Below are positions 3,022 through 37,526 of a stretch of 64,000 nucleotides of DNA, piece after piece. The stretch covers positions 9,840 through 73,839 of the forward strand of contig DATDWP010000028.1 of the NCBI GenBank assembly GCA_035289625.1, read 5' to 3'. The notes under the pieces were generated by a model. That model did no database searches and was not told the DNA's origin. It saw only the letters and a program-made list of their open reading frames with translations. The stretch's first letter is position 1; every line of letters begins with the position of its first letter. Source of the DNA: an archaeon (GTDB taxonomy: Archaea; Iainarchaeota; Iainarchaeia; Iainarchaeales; Iainarchaeaceae). The position numbers were made by a program, and so were the translations under genes.

Positions 3022-3402
3022 TTGAGAAGTAAATCTTGTATGTACCAAATAAAGCGCCTTACAATTGAATCAATAATAATTGCCGCAAAAAATACCTACC
3101 CACTTGAATTTTTCTCAATGCTTGGTGGAAAAAACAAAACAATCGAAGAACTTGTGGTTGTACCTGCAACTTTTGGGGAAAATTACTCATCATATAGACC
3201 AGATCTAATTCCATTTGACCAGGCAATAATTGGCACAATACACTCCCACCCATCTATCTACAATCACCCATCGGAAGCAGACCTTGATTCATTTGAAAAA
3301 TTCGGGCAAGTGCATCTTATCATCAGCTACCCATACGAATTAAATACGGTCCGCGCTTTTGATAATAAGGGCAAAAAAATCACCCTGAAAGTGATAGAAT
3401 GA
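3022..3402 (+). CDS. JAMM/MPN+ metalloprotease (JAB1/Mov34 family)
   Basis: Perfect JAMM motif H-x-H-x7-S-x2-D (HSHPSIYNHPSEAD) and upstream E (PLEFFSMLGG). Confidence 0.65.
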   Translation: MRSKSCMYQIKRLTIESIIIAAKNTYPLEFFSMLGGKNKTIEELVVVPATFGENYSSYRPDLIPFDQAIIGTIHSHPSIYNHPSEADLDSFEKFGQVHLIISYPYELNTVRAFDNKGKKITLKVIE

Positions 3403-4082
3403 CTAAGCTTGTTCTGGTGCGCCATGGAGAGAGCTTGTGGAATCTTGAAAACAGGTTCACCGGGTGGATCGATATTGACCTATCCGAAAAAGGAATTGAA
3501 GAGTGCAAAAGGTGCGCGCAAATACTTCTCAAAAACAACTACAAATTTGACACAGTTTACACTTCCGTACTAAAAAGGGCAATACATAGCGCCTCGATAA
3601 TACTTGGCACAATGGATCTTAGGGTGCCAATAATTGAAAACTGGCGCTTAAATGAGAGGCACTACGGAGCGCTTGCCGGGCTAAATAAACAAGAGATGCG
3701 GAAAAAACACGGAGAGAACCAGGTCTTTATGTGGAGAAGAAGCTATGACATTGCCCCTCCTGCACTTGGAAAAAATGACCCAAACCCTGCAAAAGACCCA
3801 AGGTATAAATCATTAAAAAAAAGTGAAATACCTCTCACCGAGAGTCTCAAAGATACTGTAGATCGAGTTATACCTTACTGGAAATCTGAACTTGCCCCTG
3901 CCTTAAAGAGCGGAAAGAGCATACTAATTTGTGCCCACGGAAATAGCATTCGCGCGCTAATAAAACATATTGACAAAATTTCAAATGAAGAGATACCAAA
4001 ACTAGAAATCCCCACAGGAAAACCACTTGTATATGAATTTGGGAAAAACCTAAAACCTATAAAACATTACTATCTGGAATAG
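3399..4082 (+). CDS. gpmA: 2,3-bisphosphoglycerate-dependent phosphoglycerate mutase
   Basis: LVRHGESLWNLENRFTGW catalytic His motif and CAHGNSIRAL second His motif; ATGA overlap with upstream JAMM gene. Confidence 0.85.
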   Translation: MTKLVLVRHGESLWNLENRFTGWIDIDLSEKGIEECKRCAQILLKNNYKFDTVYTSVLKRAIHSASIILGTMDLRVPIIENWRLNERHYGALAGLNKQEMRKKHGENQVFMWRRSYDIAPPALGKNDPNPAKDPRYKSLKKSEIPLTESLKDTVDRVIPYWKSELAPALKSGKSILICAHGNSIRALIKHIDKISNEEIPKLEIPTGKPLVYEFGKNLKPIKHYYLE

Positions 4083-30387: not shown

Positions 30388-30801
30388 TCACACAACCCTT
30401 ACTTTTGCCTCTTTCACTCTTTTCCACTCCTTATCGCTCGTGACTGCCGTCGCATCGTTTTCGATAGCTGTTTGTAGTATTATGGCATCAGCCATTGAGA
30501 GATTGAGGTCTGTATGCCTGCTTTTCAAAAATGCCGCTTTCTTTGCTATTTTGAGGGTCGGCTCAATAAAACTCCCAATTTTCTCGAAAAATACCACTGA
30601 TTTTACGGCTGACCTTATATTCTTCCTCTTCAAGGTTGTTATAAGCTCAAAAGCCGAGAGCGTGCTTGCAAGGCAATTAATTTCCTTTTTGCTGCCCTTT
30701 TCAAGTAGGTAACCAACCTTTTTGCTGCCCTTTTCTGCGATAGCGAATTTTACCAGTGCGGAGCTGTCAAAAACCAAATCTTTTTTATCTTTTTTTCTCA
30801 T
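30388..30801 (-). CDS. vapC: PIN-domain toxin (VapC-like)
   Basis: LVFDSSALV N-terminal PIN motif; acidic residues spaced as in PIN; 137 aa; overlaps the upstream small gene. Confidence 0.7.
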   Translation of the reverse strand: MRKKDKKDLVFDSSALVKFAIAEKGSKKVGYLLEKGSKKEINCLASTLSAFELITTLKRKNIRSAVKSVVFFEKIGSFIEPTLKIAKKAAFLKSRHTDLNLSMADAIILQTAIENDATAVTSDKEWKRVKEAKVRVV

Positions 30802-31018
30802 CTTCTTGCCTCATTTTCTTGATATCTGAAGATTTTATGCCGGCCCCTTTTGCGATGCCGTAAAGCGCCGCTACAGGATCTTTTGGAACCGGTATCAAAA
30901 GTATCCCTTCAGGAACTTTTTCCACGACAAATTCCGTGCCAGAAAACCAATCCTCTTCTTCCCTAATTTGCGCCGGGAGTACCAACTGCCCCTTTGAAGA
31001 AAGTATTGTTCTATACAT
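30785..31018 (-). CDS. vapB: AbrB/SpoVT-type antitoxin (VapB-like)
   Basis: 77 aa; LSSKGQLVLPAQIRE swapped-hairpin motif; overlaps vapC start. Confidence 0.7.
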   Translation of the reverse strand: MYRTILSSKGQLVLPAQIREEEDWFSGTEFVVEKVPEGILLIPVPKDPVAALYGIAKGAGIKSSDIKKMRQEDEKKR

Positions 31019-32752: not shown

Positions 32753-32818
32753 GGAAAAATGGCTTAGTATATAGAAATAGTTAAGGTTTTTTAAACGGTT
32801 TTTAGTGGAAATAAGATC

Positions 32819-33538
32819 ATGTCAATATATCGATTCCTCGTGTATTCAGACGAGTCTATTCATGGAGTCAGACTTAGAAAATTAGTAAAGAAAGTAGCCG
32901 ATGAACTTACGCCGCCTATATTAGGAGAAACTCAGAATTTGGACGACGAACACGAAGTTGAAGTTCTATGCAGCGTTCAGGATAAAGCTCATCTTGCGAC
33001 CTTTGTTGCCATTATTATAAAATCAGCAAAAGAAATTGCAGATGTTGATGTGAAAATTGCACAGCCTTTAGAGGTAAATGATTTACATAAATATAAAAAT
33101 TTCAAAGATTTTAAGGTAATTCGTGGAGATGCTTTGAAAGAAATTGAATTGGAAATAGAAGGTGCTGAAAGGTTATTTAGAAAATTACAGGAAAATTTCG
33201 AAAAGTTTATTTTGAAAAGAGAAAATAATAAGTTGAAGGGGCTAGATTATCTATTGAAAACGATAGCCGGAAATTTAAAACCAGACGAACCGAAAGCCAA
33301 ATGGCATACCGCCAGAACTGCAATATCGGATTTTGTCGCTGAACCATTCGATGATGATTTGTTTCAATCGGTACAAGAAATAGACCAATTGTTGTATGAA
33401 TTAGCTGATTTTGAAGGCCAAGATATCAGTAAATTGCCAAAAGAACAAGTTGAAAAATTATTGCGACTAATAGACATTTCCCGTAAGAAAATCGCTGATT
33501 TGCACCGGCAGGAAGGTTCAAATATTATTATTAAGTAG
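32819..33538 (+). CDS. hypothetical protein, candidate toxin/effector partner of the Panacea-domain protein
   Basis: No motif; sits 39 nt upstream of the DUF4065 gene in an AT-rich island. Confidence 0.35.
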   Translation: MSIYRFLVYSDESIHGVRLRKLVKKVADELTPPILGETQNLDDEHEVEVLCSVQDKAHLATFVAIIIKSAKEIADVDVKIAQPLEVNDLHKYKNFKDFKVIRGDALKEIELEIEGAERLFRKLQENFEKFILKRENNKLKGLDYLLKTIAGNLKPDEPKAKWHTARTAISDFVAEPFDDDLFQSVQEIDQLLYELADFEGQDISKLPKEQVEKLLRLIDISRKKIADLHRQEGSNIIIK

Positions 33539-33576
33539 TTAATATAGAGTTCTAGAAGGTTGGTCGGTATTTTGGT

Positions 33577-34035
33577 ATGTCGGAAAATGTTACAGTTAAG
33601 GCAATTGATGCGTACGAATATATTTTTGGAAAATTAAGTTTAGGTAGTTTTAGCAGCCGCTTGATGTTCCAAAAAACAATTTATTTACTAAAATTATTTG
33701 GCGTTCCTAGTTTCCAAGATTTGTCTTATACTTGGTATAAAAGAGGCCCTTATTGTTTCGAGTTAGGCGGGATTTACAGTAAAAAATACCAAGAGAAATA
33801 CTATTTAGATGAAAAGGATGTTGAGTCTATCAAGAATTGTAAAAAAATAATTTTAGAGTTAATATCTGATGAAAAATACGGGGAACTAAATTCTTCAATA
33901 GCATATTTACTTCATGATGAAAAACTTTCTGATGAAGATATCATCAAACGAATGTTCTTAACAAAACCGTGGTTTGAAAAAGCAAACGTAGAATCTGCAT
34001 TGGTAAAATTAAAGCAACTTTTACGCCCTAATTAA
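33577..34035 (+). CDS. Panacea-domain (DUF4065, GepA/SocA-like) protein
   Basis: FQKTIYLLKLFGVPSFQDLSYTWYKRGPYCFEL matches the LQKLLY...G...F.AW..GP core of Panacea domains. Confidence 0.55.
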   Translation: MSENVTVKAIDAYEYIFGKLSLGSFSSRLMFQKTIYLLKLFGVPSFQDLSYTWYKRGPYCFELGGIYSKKYQEKYYLDEKDVESIKNCKKIILELISDEKYGELNSSIAYLLHDEKLSDEDIIKRMFLTKPWFEKANVESALVKLKQLLRPN

Positions 34036-34511
34036 ATTTACAATCTACCCTAATTCATTCAGTTCATGCATAATAACCACAATACGATAATAGAGAATTT
34101 TGAACAAGCATTCATTGATTTGTGCTGCTTTAGTTTTGCCTTTTAGCATACTGAAACTGAGTAGTAGCAGCCTAGACAAAAAAAGAAGCCTTACAACTAG
34201 GACAATGGCACTTGTTTTCCCTTTCTTGAGGGAACTTTACTCTCACGAACGTCTTGGTGATTACAATACGGACAAATCATTTCAATTCTTCCCAATCAAA
34301 TTCACATTCCATTCTATCACTAGTTATTATGTAACTGCAGAGTTTGCAACGCCACTCCACTAGATGAACGGACCCATCCCCCATATACTGAATTAGCTTT
34401 CTAACAGTTTTGAACTTCCCACCACAAGCACAGTAAAACTTTCAACCACTTATTTTAGGCACCTAATAAATATAAGCAAAGATTTAAATAATATAGGTAC
34501 CTAACAACATC

Positions 34512-34673
34512 ATGCGCCTACAAAAACAAATGTCAAGACGAGTAGGGGATGTGGAATATGCAAAATGGGTCGTAGTAATACCCCCAGAAATAGTTGAAAA
34601 AAGCAAATTAAAAGAAGGCCAAGAATTAGAAGCACACGTAGCCGAAGGAAAAATAACTCTAAAACCAAAATAA
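34512..34673 (+). CDS. 53-aa AbrB/SpoVT-like small regulator (not in the ORF track)
   Basis: Hand translation MRLQKQMSRRVGDVEYAKWVVVIPPEIVEKSKLKEGQELEAHVAEGKITLKPK; swapped-hairpin-like V.IP.EI...L.EG.E; palindromes sit directly upstream. Confidence 0.45.
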   Translation: MRLQKQMSRRVGDVEYAKWVVVIPPEIVEKSKLKEGQELEAHVAEGKITLKPK

Positions 34674-35624
34674 CTATTTTAGAGATTTTTTCAAACTATC
34701 AAAACTTTTCTTAAAATTAGCCACAATCTTTTTTGTTTTTGGAAACGATAAGTTCCCGTCATTTTCTAATTTTACTAGATATTTTTTAAATTCATTTTCC
34801 TCTTCAACACTTCTATTTGTTTTACTAACCAATTTTAAAAAAGCGTCATTGGTTTTTGGCACATATAAGATTTGCACCCCTTCACCTACATAATTGTCAA
34901 TTTTTGATTCCTCAATATAATTTATTATAAAACAACCTAATTTTGCCATTTCTTCCATGGTAATTTCATCACTCCACATCGCCTTTAGAAAAGTCTGTGC
35001 ATATGGCGAACCACTACCTATTGCCAAAAAAGTTTTTCTTTTACTATCTAAACAATCAGCAATCTCTAATTTATGTAACTCAGCCTCGCGCCCTGAACGA
35101 AAAGCAATTAAAAGTTGCAATCCATTTGGATATTTTTCCATTATATCTTTGTATTGATTTTTCATTTGAAATAAAATCCCTTCACAATCTTCAACAAACT
35201 GATTTGCATAAGCATATGGACTAATTATCGCATCCAACTCTTCTTGAGTTATTTTTGGATTCTGCTCCTGCATTTGTTTTTTTATTTGTTTTTTCCTTTC
35301 TTCTAAGTTAATGAAAACACGAGCTAAAAATTTATCAAATAATTCAGAAATTCCAGCCCCGCTGAACCCTACGCCCAAAGCATCTACCAAGTAAATTTTA
35401 GGATGTGAAGCAATATCTACACCCTCAACTACTTTTTTGTCGGAAATTATTACTACTCCGTCTTTACAATTTGCCCCTATTACTAATGTCATTTTTTCGC
35501 CATTTTGAGGTTTGTTTTTTAACATTTTCGGCACTTTCTGATAAGTAAGCAAAAACGAAACTATAAATTGTCTTTGATTGCTTATCGGTGTTGACACACC
35601 AAAAAAGTACCTAATTTTAGGCAC
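34674..35624 (-). CDS. HslV/proteasome-beta-like Ntn-hydrolase with an internal insertion and C-terminal extension
   Basis: MTLVIGANCKDGVVIISDKKV...LGVGFSGAGIS and AIGSGSPYAQ match HslV/20S beta motifs (Thr1, Lys33-like, GSG); true start probably internal (MTLVIG near 35492). Confidence 0.55.
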   Translation of the reverse strand: MPKIRYFFGVSTPISNQRQFIVSFLLTYQKVPKMLKNKPQNGEKMTLVIGANCKDGVVIISDKKVVEGVDIASHPKIYLVDALGVGFSGAGISELFDKFLARVFINLEERKKQIKKQMQEQNPKITQEELDAIISPYAYANQFVEDCEGILFQMKNQYKDIMEKYPNGLQLLIAFRSGREAELHKLEIADCLDSKRKTFLAIGSGSPYAQTFLKAMWSDEITMEEMAKLGCFIINYIEESKIDNYVGEGVQILYVPKTNDAFLKLVSKTNRSVEEENEFKKYLVKLENDGNLSFPKTKKIVANFKKSFDSLKKSLK

Positions 35625-35643
35625 CTAAAAGAATAAAAGGGAG

Positions 35644-35922
35644 ATGGTAATGGATTTAGAAGAAGTTAGAAATTTTTTACTCGAAGTAAATAGTTTCTTG
35701 GCTATATTTATATTAACAAAAGACACCGTACCCATTCTTTCTAATAATTGGGAACAAAACATATTTCCTCTAATAACATATGCACTTATTTTAGGAGGAC
35801 TGTCATTTTTAATTGCAAAGTTTATTAAAAACACATTAGCCGGAGATAGAGTTTATGCTCAAGTTATAGCACATATTTTTTTGTTAATTCTATTTACTCA
35901 ATTGCTGACACCTAAATTATAA
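35644..35922 (+). CDS. small membrane protein, hypothetical
   Basis: Three hydrophobic helices. Confidence 0.3.
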   Translation: MVMDLEEVRNFLLEVNSFLAIFILTKDTVPILSNNWEQNIFPLITYALILGGLSFLIAKFIKNTLAGDRVYAQVIAHIFLLILFTQLLTPKL

Positions 35923-35959
35923 TTTGATTAACCACTAGTACAAGAAAATTTTTTTCCGA

Positions 35960-36391
35960 TTATTTTTCAACATATATTTCATCTTGGTTTGGTTTTTTGT
36001 GAATTTTTGCAAAAATAAAACCAATAGCATACGTTATCATTATTATTGATGCGATTAATCCTACCAAAATATTCTGCCATGACTCACCATGCGCCCAATA
36101 AGCATTTCTACCAGCTTTCAATGCAAAATAATACATTGGCCACGTCGCAATCACAATTAGGACATAAGTAATTACTGAGACCGTATTAAAATCGAGAAAA
36201 GCTAAGTAGGGGCTATTAATAAAATTACCCGATACAAAAGCTATTAGAACCCACAAACCCGCCCATAAATATTGTCCAAAAAAATAGATAAGGGCACGTT
36301 TAGTATAATTAAACTGTTTAAACAATTCCATGAGAGCCACATTATTCCAATAAATCCAGATTTTAGCCAATTTGGCTAAATTCTTTACCAT
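35960..36391 (-). CDS. polytopic membrane protein, hypothetical
   Basis: Hydrophobic helices; no motif. Confidence 0.35.
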   Translation of the reverse strand: MVKNLAKLAKIWIYWNNVALMELFKQFNYTKRALIYFFGQYLWAGLWVLIAFVSGNFINSPYLAFLDFNTVSVITYVLIVIATWPMYYFALKAGRNAYWAHGESWQNILVGLIASIIMITYAIGFIFAKIHKKPNQDEIYVEK

Positions 36392-36682
36392 TAAAGAGGC
36401 TTAAAATTATTAAGCTTAGTTATATGCAAATAGGCAAACATAAACCGCTTTTCAGGCTTAAAATAACCGGAGTTAAAACAAATAAATCCAAAAACCTCGA
36501 TCAATTCTACAGCGAACTCGTAGACCTATTAAGAGCTAAAGAATAACCAATTCCGACTTTTTACACAAAACCGACTTATTACACAGCGCTACATAAAAAA
36601 GCGTTGTGTAAATAAGGTTCAAAATTGACGACTTTCTACACAAAAAGCAGACTTTTTACACAGATTACTCCATGATTATTCT

Positions 36683-37435
36683 ATGGGTTTTTACCGAGAC
36701 TTCACGGGAGGATCTTTAGACCCTCCTTCTTCTGGTAGAAGATCTCCAAGAAGAGATGATTGGCACAGACATGACAATTATAGGCCAAGAAGGAAAAATT
36801 ACTTTGAAATGTTGAAGGTTCCTGTAATTTTACTTATTGTTCTGGGTGTATTCTTTTACTTAGCTAATAATGGAGATGCAACATACAACGAAACAATCCC
36901 AAAAATTAATAATGATTTTAATAAAATGGTGCAGGATTTTTTCAAAAATACATTTCCGCCTTCGGAACCTATTGCCGATAAAACCAAAGAGGTTGAGAGA
37001 TTAATATTTTATTACACAAACCAAGAAAGACAAAAGTATGGTGTTTCGTTACTGAGTTGGAATGACAGTTTAGCAGATATTGCACGCGAACATAGTCTTG
37101 ACATGGCCACCAATAATTTCTTTGAACATGATAATCCGAGAGGTGAAGATCCAACTGCAAGAGCGCGTAGACACGGATTTCCAGTTGAAGTGCAATTAAG
37201 TAAAAATGTAACTCAAGTTGGAATAGCTGAAAATATTGGCATGATGCCAACAGGAAACGTACAAGGAATTGGTAGAGTGGGTTCAGATGCCGACAGTGTA
37301 GCTTATGCACATGTCAAATCATGGATGGAAAGTCCTGGCCACAGAACTAATATACTTGACCCAAGCTCTCATATAATAGGAGTTGGAGTTGCCTATTCGG
37401 ATGGGTATTATTATGCAACTCAAGATTTCCAATAG
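36683..37435 (+). CDS. CAP/SCP/PR-1 domain secreted protein
   Basis: TM/signal then GHRTNILDPSSHIIGVGVA and HYTNQ motifs of CAP domains. Confidence 0.6.
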   Translation: MGFYRDFTGGSLDPPSSGRRSPRRDDWHRHDNYRPRRKNYFEMLKVPVILLIVLGVFFYLANNGDATYNETIPKINNDFNKMVQDFFKNTFPPSEPIADKTKEVERLIFYYTNQERQKYGVSLLSWNDSLADIAREHSLDMATNNFFEHDNPRGEDPTARARRHGFPVEVQLSKNVTQVGIAENIGMMPTGNVQGIGRVGSDADSVAYAHVKSWMESPGHRTNILDPSSHIIGVGVAYSDGYYYATQDFQ

Positions 37436-37526
37436 CACAGAAAAAGATTACTTTTTACACAAAACCTACTTATTACACAACGCTACATAAAAAGGAAAAT
37501 ATTTATACTCGCGTGCACTTACTCAT

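Follow-up and report, generated by a model that had tools for sequence, protein, structure and literature searches.

In ICEBs1 and related phage-like elements, the repressor that controls the recombinase is paired with an adjacent, dedicated protease: ImmR, a helix-turn-helix repressor, and ImmA, a metalloprotease, are encoded by co-transcribed genes. In IS605-family elements, the small repressor Arc binds its own transposon promoters and keeps the genes off (Moon et al., bioRxiv 10.64898/2026.09.24.754181). Among proteasome homologs, a number of orphan families, including ACC and PHI, were catalogued by Fuchs, Alva and Lupas (2021), and none of the new families had an informative genomic context (PMC8665760). 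In the current work, we describe a gene for a proteasome-like protein in a stretch of 64,000 nucleotides from an archaeal contig of the Iainarchaeaceae (DATDWP010000028.1, positions 9,840 to 73,839 of the forward strand), hereafter the window. P is the name used for the product of the open reading frame (ORF) at 34674..35624 on the minus strand and for its relatives. On balance, we favor the reading that P belongs to DDE transposons equipped with an AbrB/operator circuit, that it acts on the element's own proteins, and that the window copy is a relic of such an element. No report tying a proteasome homolog to AbrB, to a transposase, or to insertion sequences was found in the literature; the fold and the transposon families are known, and it is the conserved accessory module itself that is unreported.

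The central features of the locus are the following (window coordinates).

34674..35492, minus strand: P, 272 aa, beginning MTLVIGANCKDG
35493..35624, minus strand: in-frame upstream extension of the P ORF, whose GTG at 35624 lies at the center of a palindrome (next line)
35615..35630, no strand: putative P-side operator palindrome TTTTAGGCACCTAAAA, with a TATA-like CTTTTATTC (35631-35639) ahead of it when read in the direction of P
34512..34673, plus strand: abrB, gene for an AbrB/SpoVT-fold DNA-binding protein of 53 aa, convergent to P, the stop codons abutting with a 0-nt gap
34453..34503, no strand: abrB promoter region, with putative operator TTTTAGGCACCTAA at 34453-34466, TATA box TTTAAATA at 34483-34490, and putative operator TAGGTACCTA at 34494-34503

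The P frame is open from a GTG over 316 codons according to the ORF list, and its product passes the Pfam Proteasome model (PF00227) with 49.5 bits and an E-value of 5.1e-13 (gathering cut-off, 22.4). It has the alpha-beta-beta-alpha sandwich of the T1 Ntn-hydrolase superfamily, and its best sequence matches in the Protein Data Bank (PDB), at E about 1e-6, are archaeal alpha and beta subunits, both of which it resembles to about the same degree. When 28 diverse relatives were aligned, down to 26% identity, T2, G6, C9, G12, D18, K32, G47, G159, and G203 proved invariant, and D199 was kept in at least 90% of them. In proteasome numbering, the catalytic positions correspond to Thr1 (T2), Asp17 (D18), Lys33 (K32), Gly47 (G47), the GSG loop (159-161), and Asp166 (D199); Ser129 (S160) is retained in the subfamily of the window protein and is His or another residue in distant members, and Ser169 of the proteasome is unconserved. 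Judged from its sequence, P is a proteasome-fold threonine peptidase of predicted activity, with intact catalytic residues and without a propeptide. The first-pass annotation had treated this ORF as a real gene and had assigned it to the superfamily through three motifs, which correspond to strands S1/S2 (containing Thr1 and Asp17), to the loop around Gly47, and to the G-S-G loop; both points are borne out, as is the Thr/Lys/GSG constellation, which survives alignment (T2, K32, and G159 being invariant).

The main departures from a standard subunit lie in the H1-H2 region and at the C-terminus. Residues 75-120 of P stand in for residues 75-94 of the Archaeoglobus fulgidus beta subunit, a net gain of about 26 aa, and the structure model places a helix at 49-77, a short helix at 83-89, and a further helix at 96-120. 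The extra residues of this hairpin, about 26-30, are missing from distant members of the 28-member alignment. A helical insertion had been noted before at a size of ~90 aa; the insertion stands, at about 26-30 aa, the larger figure having counted the canonical H1/H2 helices. The Lys-rich C-terminal tail noted at the same time was likewise found, comprising ~55 residues that are mostly helical in the model; the C-terminus exceeds that of the beta subunit by about 30 aa, its last part being a long amphipathic helix (253-271).

The start of the protein was defined by comparison. The motif MTL(V/I)xGAxCKDGVV is conserved in all close homologs, two of which begin exactly there, and N-terminal extensions upstream of MTL are unconserved. 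The codon that precedes Thr1 was scored in 88 loci and is ATG in 58, TTG in 12, GTG in one, ATT in one, and ACG in 16 Bathyarchaeia copies, where ATT comes before the ACG; Gly never occupies position -1, so that the Gly(-1)/Thr1 autolysis site of PsmB is missing. Because a start codon stands at position -1 in every case, and Gly in none, direct initiation without a processed propeptide is indicated, as had been proposed from the Thr directly after the start codon, and together with the two homologs that start at MTL, this sets the true P start at 35492 rather than at GTG 35624, giving 272 aa. Instead of a propeptide, the segment at 35493..35624 thus most likely represents a promoter region or a 5' leader. 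After methionine removal, P would be a Thr1 peptidase. An apparently conserved propeptide in P0005, P0007, and L007 (..RKDLNR.LGTY..) was rejected, being the translated TATA box GATTTAAATA and operator TTAGGTACCTA. The Bathyarchaeia copies (L009-L012, L037, and L040-L049) have no ATG, GTG, or TTG before Thr1; the sequence ATT ACG ACA TTA is kept there across many contigs, which suggests initiation at ATT.

These data also bear on whether P might be the canonical PsmB, or an orthologue of HslV or Anbu, that has diverged through fast lineage evolution. The PDB matches to archaeal alpha and beta subunits would fit such an origin, as would the lack of any other proteasome homolog within the 64-kb window; the NCBIfam models, in contrast, assign P only 43 bits for the archaeal alpha subunit (cut-off 219), 37 bits for arc_protsome_B (TIGR03634; cut-off 224), and 12.9 bits for HslV (TIGR03692; cut-off 157.75). 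The equal likeness to alpha and beta, the absence of a propeptide and of Gly at -1, and the location of the genes inside transposons (see below) speak further against it, and relatives occur in genomes of Methanosarcinales, Bathyarchaeia, and Nitrososphaerota, lineages that have normal proteasomes. Compared with PsmB as modeled by TIGR03634, P has no propeptide, ~26 more residues between H1 and H2, and a C-terminus ~30 aa longer, and it resides on a mobile element; compared with HslV, it stays below the equivalog cut-off and has no hslU AAA+ partner. The Anbu gene sits in an operon with ATP-grasp and transglutaminase-like genes, and neither these nor any AAA+ gene were found among the neighbors of P in the window. 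P shares merely 13% identity with Anbu (PDB 5loy), which is a bacterial protein (PMC8665760). Divergence from a canonical subunit is therefore a very improbable explanation, and on these scores P appears to be neither PsmB, PsmA, nor HslV, in keeping with the earlier statement that it is not the canonical 20S subunit (37-43 bits against alpha and beta cut-offs of 219-224).

An exhaustive profile search of 1.84 billion representatives returned 669 proteins at E <= 1e-3, 292 of them at 1e-10, and from their sequences the P family is a small, separate archaeal clade. Species-representative genomes yielded 13 matches, all in archaeal metagenome-assembled genomes (MAGs) of Methanosarcinales, Methanocellaceae, Bathyarchaeia, Nitrososphaerota, and Thermoproteota. 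The relatives found that derive from NCBI are MAG proteins labeled 'hypothetical protein'; among them is HLC79999.1 (283 aa), a GenBank entry of an unclassified archaeon that falls in the same 90% cluster as the window protein. A scan of IMG/VR gave no relative of P, and a viral origin was set aside as unsupported, the fold matches in BFVD being distant phage HslV-like proteins (TM about 0.45). Two relatives from the profile search, P0131 and P0155, carry the P domain fused to a C-terminal tandem-repeat region of ~250-300 aa that looks NHL/beta-propeller-like by eye; the family is thus deployed in other architectures as well.

In kind, P comes closest to ACC and PHI and may belong to one of them. 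The orphan status, the residues Thr1/Asp17/Lys33/Gly47, the lack of a propeptide, and the likeness to both alpha and beta subunits are common to all three, and P matches the archaeal distribution of ACC and the helical insertion around H1/H2 of PHI, as well as the long C-terminal (coiled-coil-like) helix described for this group. The comparison with the two families (representatives WP_161937350.1 for ACC and WP_012956871.1 for PHI) was one of described features, which indicate likeness rather than prove membership. The PHI insertion was placed after H1/H2, at the pore loop (PMC8665760), whereas the extra residues of the P model fall between H1 and H2. A second difference lies in the surroundings: ACC and PHI are without informative context (PMC8665760), whereas P is accompanied by a conserved AbrB gene and an operator and lies within recognizable transposon ends.

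The AbrB partner was studied in 100 P loci, consisting of the window, six exact-protein look-ups, 13 loci from genomes, and 80 from metagenomes; for counts of distinct loci, P proteins were collapsed at 90% identity, leaving 53 with at least 220 nt downstream. The product of the window gene matches Pfam PF04014 (E 1.7e-8; 34.7 bits, cut-off 24.7) and falls under the 28.3-bit cut-off of NCBIfam TIGR01439 (E 3e-4; 20.4 bits). With a hidden Markov model of the small AbrB protein, its gene was detected in about 45 of the 100 loci, convergent to P and abutting it as in the window; among distinct loci, a 53-57-aa abrB has this arrangement in 23 of 53, and these AbrB+ loci are spread across most of the P family tree. 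In 17 of the 23, the 3' ends of the two genes overlap, typically by 4-21 nt, which leaves no space for terminators. AbrB is far better conserved than P (M[KR]LQKQLSR[KR]V..EY.K[YW]VV.IPP).

Palindromes of a single kind accompany this gene pair. The core motif TAGG[TC][AG]CCTA occurs three times in the window (34456, 34494, and 35618), against 0.11 copies expected, and none of 100 shuffles reached three copies; two copies lie at the abrB promoter, where TAGGTACCTA ends 8 nt before the abrB ATG, and one lies upstream of P. Across all P loci, 267 core-motif matches were counted in 642 kb, nearly all of them falling at one of two set positions, and exclusively in loci with abrB. At the first position, immediately ahead of the P start, the motif was found in 18 of 22 AbrB+ and in none of 29 AbrB- distinct loci (Fisher p = 2.6e-10), and at the abrB promoter region in 19 of 23 and one of 30, respectively (p = 1.3e-9). 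From Bathyarchaeia to Methanosarcinales, the order TATA-like box, palindrome, start codon recurs at the P, abrB, and transposase promoters; in archaea, repressors usually block polymerase recruitment from sites placed between the TATA box and the start. In AbrB+ loci other than the window, the distance from the end of the P-side motif to the P start is 7-39 nt (median 18). In relatives, the abrB promoter region doubles as a divergent transposase promoter: the gene divergent from abrB starts just past the last palindrome and is usually a transposase, or a TrmB-like regulator in Bathyarchaeia.

The motif is missing from loci with a transposase and no AbrB and is present in Bathyarchaeia loci with AbrB and no transposase; it therefore tracks AbrB. 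For the same reason, the idea that the palindrome is a transposase-binding site or an element end was rejected. Position and co-occurrence thus argue strongly that the TAGGYRCCTA palindromes are AbrB operators. The repeated palindromes flanking the gene had been pointed out in the first-pass annotation, which also placed it in an AT-rich island and suspected that it was regulated; the palindromes are indeed real and non-random (three against 0.11 expected) and behave like operators of the adjacent AbrB-type gene, and the island is described below. In L093, a second group of seven motif matches was seen at about 2130-2240, ~3.7 kb upstream of P and ~0.8 kb upstream of a 268-aa ORF (3047-3853) with an AbrB-like segment (76 bits), so that the AbrB regulon may reach past the three core genes.

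The wider surroundings of the relatives point to mobile DNA. In 28 loci, a DDE transposase is encoded no more than 5 kb from P, typically 216-293 nt past the P end and divergent from abrB. Two unrelated catalytic types are involved, DDE_Tnp_IS240 (IS6; PF13610, E about 1e-16) and DDE_Tnp_1 (PF01609; E 3e-20 in L004), and both carry a similar N-terminal SWIM zinc finger; in some AbrB-less loci, an IS6-type transposase is convergent to P and overlaps it. No inverted repeats were found within 700 nt beyond the transposase, and it was a search of the whole locus, in which the sequence ahead of P was compared with all that follows P, that revealed the repeats and target duplications of the following elements.

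L014: inverted repeat GGTTCTGGTAACTTTTCGACGG, 22/22; 8-bp duplication TCTCACCG; 5180 bp
L031: inverted repeat 54/54; duplication TGACTTTG; 3799 bp
L033: inverted repeat 21/22; duplication AAAAAGAG; 1385 bp, with P and abrB only
L035/L038: inverted repeat 20/22; duplication GTGTTTAG; 1944 bp
L071: inverted repeat 24/24; duplication TCCAAGAC; 6208 bp
L004 (DDE_Tnp_1 type): inverted repeat GGCTTTGTGTAAAAAGT, 17/17; 9-bp duplication TATATACGC; 3597 bp

In every case, P lies 80-200 nt inside one inverted repeat and reads inward. Eight base pairs is the usual duplication length of the IS6 family, and the first five entries show the IS6 hallmarks of GG-tipped repeats, 8-bp duplications, and a DDE_Tnp_IS240-type transposase, while L004 has the two repeats, the duplication, and the intact PF01609 transposase of a DDE_Tnp_1 (IS4/IS5-superfamily) element. 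The ends also fit the GG tips and cTGT motif described for IS6 (Varani et al., 2021; PMC7986276). In that survey of IS6 (IS26/IS257/IS240 type) and 'tIS' elements, one single member is listed with a passenger gene (PMC7986276), whereas the present elements form an entire archaeal group with P in a constant place, some of them having abrB as well and others lacking it; the transposase also differs from the IS6 family in its N-terminal SWIM finger, and the module occurs in addition with the unrelated DDE_Tnp_1 transposase, which is the type found in the window. From this recurrent arrangement, P genes appear to be integral parts of archaeal DDE transposons. In Bathyarchaeia, a block of about 1140 nt with P and abrB recurs in differing surroundings, and in L009 and L011 a duplicated TrmB-family regulator stands on both sides of the cassette.

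A working scheme can be drawn from these parts. AbrB would bind the palindromes and thereby keep P, abrB, and the transposase shut, a step for which the operator data provide good support, and the convergent, overlapping P and abrB transcripts would add mutual interference. Where repression is absent or lost, for example upon entry into a naive cell, P would be produced together with the transposase, and removal of its methionine would yield the Thr1 peptidase. Its target might then be the element's transposase and/or repressor, so that P would limit or trigger a transposition burst; this last step is the least certain of the scheme and the most weakly supported. As a tiny, element-encoded DNA-binding protein, Arc of IS605 offers a precedent for the role proposed here for AbrB, although it is a ribbon-helix-helix protein rather than a swapped hairpin, belongs to another transposon family and another domain of life, and has no associated peptidase. 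The pairing with a protease recalls ImmR/ImmA, from which the present system differs in its Ntn-type protease, its AbrB-type repressor, its convergent gene order, and the existence of P loci that lack AbrB.

The same gene pair could instead be a toxin-antitoxin-like addiction or defense cargo, in which AbrB, as a 'transcriptional antitoxin', holds off a harmful P and the pair stabilizes the element or aborts infection. The AbrB fold is the classic DNA-binding domain of MazE/VapB antitoxins, and to the PF04014 match are added weak NCBIfam matches to MazE and doc-partner models; moreover, the P/abrB pair has stayed intact beside a dead transposase in the window, and without any transposase in the 1385-bp L033 element and the ~1140-nt Bathyarchaeia cassette, and the same elements bear PemK, Panacea, and methylase-Mrr genes. 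A precedent would be the toxin-antitoxin pairs that sit within the regulatory region of Tn3 transposons (PMC7157771). The 53-57-aa AbrB, however, is without the C-terminal toxin-binding extension found in the 77-aa VapB of the window, so that it consists of little more than the DNA-binding domain and lacks a defining trait of type II antitoxins, and P and abrB are convergent with a 3' overlap rather than arranged in a co-directional operon. The defense-system search with PADLOC gave no match for P or AbrB. In addition, P keeps its place beside the inverted repeat with transposases of two unrelated families, and it is retained abutting the transposase where AbrB is absent; for these reasons, a core function fits better than an optional cargo. 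We accordingly consider the addiction reading unlikely. A possible defense or stress link had also been raised in the first-pass annotation; it found no direct support, and the evidence points to a transposon module instead.

The VapB used in this comparison belongs to a VapBC pair at 30388-31018 on the minus strand, in which a PIN toxin (PF01850; E 2e-12) is accompanied by an overlapping, co-directional 77-aa antitoxin of the AbrB/MazE fold, in contrast to the convergent 53-aa AbrB. The cargo of P elements is variable and includes a genuine SocA/Panacea antitoxin with its partner (L027, 7638-8632), a PemK/MazF toxin (L013, 3621-4565), an N6/N4 DNA methylase-Mrr nuclease fusion (L031, 8247-9569), and a ClpP-like SDH serine protease (L071, 908-1822).

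The window copy itself is a decayed element, in which P, abrB, and the three operators are intact, the transposase is dead, and the inverted repeats are one-sided. Its remains are as follows.

32800..37500, no strand: AT-rich island, with a GC of 0.28-0.36 between about 32.8 and 37.0 kb, compared with 0.39-0.43 on either side
34048..34146, minus strand: DDE_Tnp_1 transposase remnant of 33 aa from the C-terminus, sharing 54% identity with residues 376-408 of the L004 transposase (413 aa; tblastn E 1e-5)
34160..34280, minus strand: frameshifted CxxC...CxxC zinc-ribbon fragments resembling the IS6-type SWIM-DDE transposases near P/AbrB elsewhere
36556..36572, minus strand: terminal inverted repeat copy GGTTTTGTGTAAAAAGT, 16/17 identical to the L004 repeat, inside an array of ACTTWTTACACA at 36556-36662
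37450..37466, minus strand: a further inverted-repeat copy, identical to the first and oriented like it, located at the island's GC boundary and part of a 44-nt direct repeat (37450-37493)

The transposase debris lies between the abrB promoter and a 152-aa gene. When the zinc-ribbon fragments were aligned locally with the L007 transposase, a score of 61 was obtained, against a shuffle mean of 34.8 (sd 4.8), and none of 300 shuffles reached 61. Both inverted-repeat copies are oriented like the P-side end and form part of ACTTWTTACACA arrays at 36543-36662 and 37437-37509, which hold six copies (seven matches window-wide, against 0.75 expected) and include the 44-nt direct repeat at 95% identity. 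At the sister locus L036, three such repeats immediately precede the TATA box, which is followed by the operator and the P start. With same-orientation repeats only and a 33-aa transposase remnant, the window does not hold a complete DDE_Tnp_1 transposon, and nothing resembling a transposase-side end is visible near the 32.8-kb GC boundary. The AT-rich island noted earlier is thus confirmed by its base composition.

This state of decay raises the question of whether the window P is an inert relic or a domesticated host protease with an accessory (stress) role unrelated to mobile DNA. The fragmented transposase, the one-sided repeats, and an operator at -125 with a possible new TATA-like box in between would all agree with such a fate, and 316-aa proteins of the same 90% cluster on contigs of 74 kb and 294 kb, together with HLC79999.1 on a 150-kb contig, make the insertion look fixed. 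The 272-aa ORF, the 53-aa abrB, and the three operators are nevertheless intact, all family-invariant residues are kept, and neither P nor abrB has a frameshift or stop although the adjacent transposase has fully decayed; it is this contrast that indicates continued selection on P and abrB. An inert or purely domesticated P is accordingly rather improbable, somewhat more so than the addiction cargo discussed above. Between the P-side operator and the P start (35493-35614, minus strand), about 105 extra nt relative to other loci were observed, containing a palindrome GGTGTGTCAACACC and a TATA-like TTTATAG, a region that may act as a secondary promoter uncoupling the window P from AbrB.

Several observations weigh against the reading of P as a transposon component under AbrB control that acts on the element's own proteins. 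The locus sample was drawn by peptide pattern and is hence not unbiased, and many loci have no transposase in reach, partly owing to short contigs. About half of the distinct loci carry P without AbrB and without the motif, some of them with a transposase convergent to and abutting P; because P is kept beside the transposase in these elements, AbrB cannot be its only or universal substrate. The binding of AbrB to the motif is deduced from co-occurrence and position. In the window, 125 nt separate the end of the P-side operator from the P ATG, compared with 7-39 nt elsewhere, and no opposite-strand copy of the inverted repeat was found with three or fewer mismatches; with the transposase dead as well, the window copy may be otherwise regulated, domesticated, or merely decaying. 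Lastly, the chemistry of P could be that of a hydrolase or, as in connectase, of a ligase.

For the transposon reading, the broadest form of the proposal would be that widespread archaeal DDE transposons of the IS6 and DDE_Tnp_1 types, with SWIM-finger transposases, use a proteasome-like threonine peptidase as a built-in part, joined in about half of the lineages by an AbrB/operator circuit, and that the peptidase processes or degrades the transposase and/or the repressor to time transposition. We put this forward tentatively, as a proposal that somewhat more probably fails than holds in its entirety. If true, P would be the first known case of a transposon having a proteasome homolog among its own genes, and the orphan ACC/PHI-like homologs would gain their first functional context. 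One archaeal clade of orphan proteasome homologs acquires a reproducible genomic setting—inside transposons and, across phyla, wired by palindromes to AbrB—and an 'unknown accessory peptidase' becomes a testable three-part system of repressor, operator, and peptidase beside a transposase. Should P act on the element's own proteins, this would be a new form of transposon self-control and a new role for the proteasome fold. The P-carrying IS6-type elements are also unusual for a family that otherwise almost never has passenger genes (PMC7986276), and the compact AbrB/operator pair could be a portable archaeal repression module. The interest of the locus rests mostly on this comparative context, the window copy being a relic itself.

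Some neighboring genes deserve mention. The closest well-flanked relative (56% identity; L001-L003 and L020) adjoins the degraded remains of an AbrB gene (32 bits) as well as a tyrosine recombinase, beyond which come about 10 small unannotated genes and then glycosyltransferases, possibly another mobile context of a provirus- or plasmid-like kind. In the window, the ACTTWTTACACA arrays bracket a gene for a secreted CAP/YkwD-domain protein (36683-37435), which thus stands between two same-orientation ends. Two small predicted membrane proteins without a family match (35644-35922, plus strand, 92 aa; 35960-36391, minus strand, 143 aa) are encoded between the inverted-repeat array and the P operator; in the relatives L004 and L036, the inverted repeat is directly beside the P promoter. 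The 152-aa gene at 33577-34035 (plus strand) had been taken for a Panacea-domain neighbor of P, an assignment that found no support: its product has no Pfam match at E <= 0.1, PF13274 included, and no PDB match, its seven homologs are without a Pfam domain, and hhalign gave a probability of 0.3% against a real Panacea protein (itself E 7e-19), so that the resemblance is at the level of motifs only. It belongs to a family of seven proteins and has a weak PADLOC match to DarG (E 3.5e-4). A 239-aa protein encoded at 32819-33538 (plus strand) shows acylphosphatase-like matches below threshold only, and both island proteins may be leftover cargo of the element.

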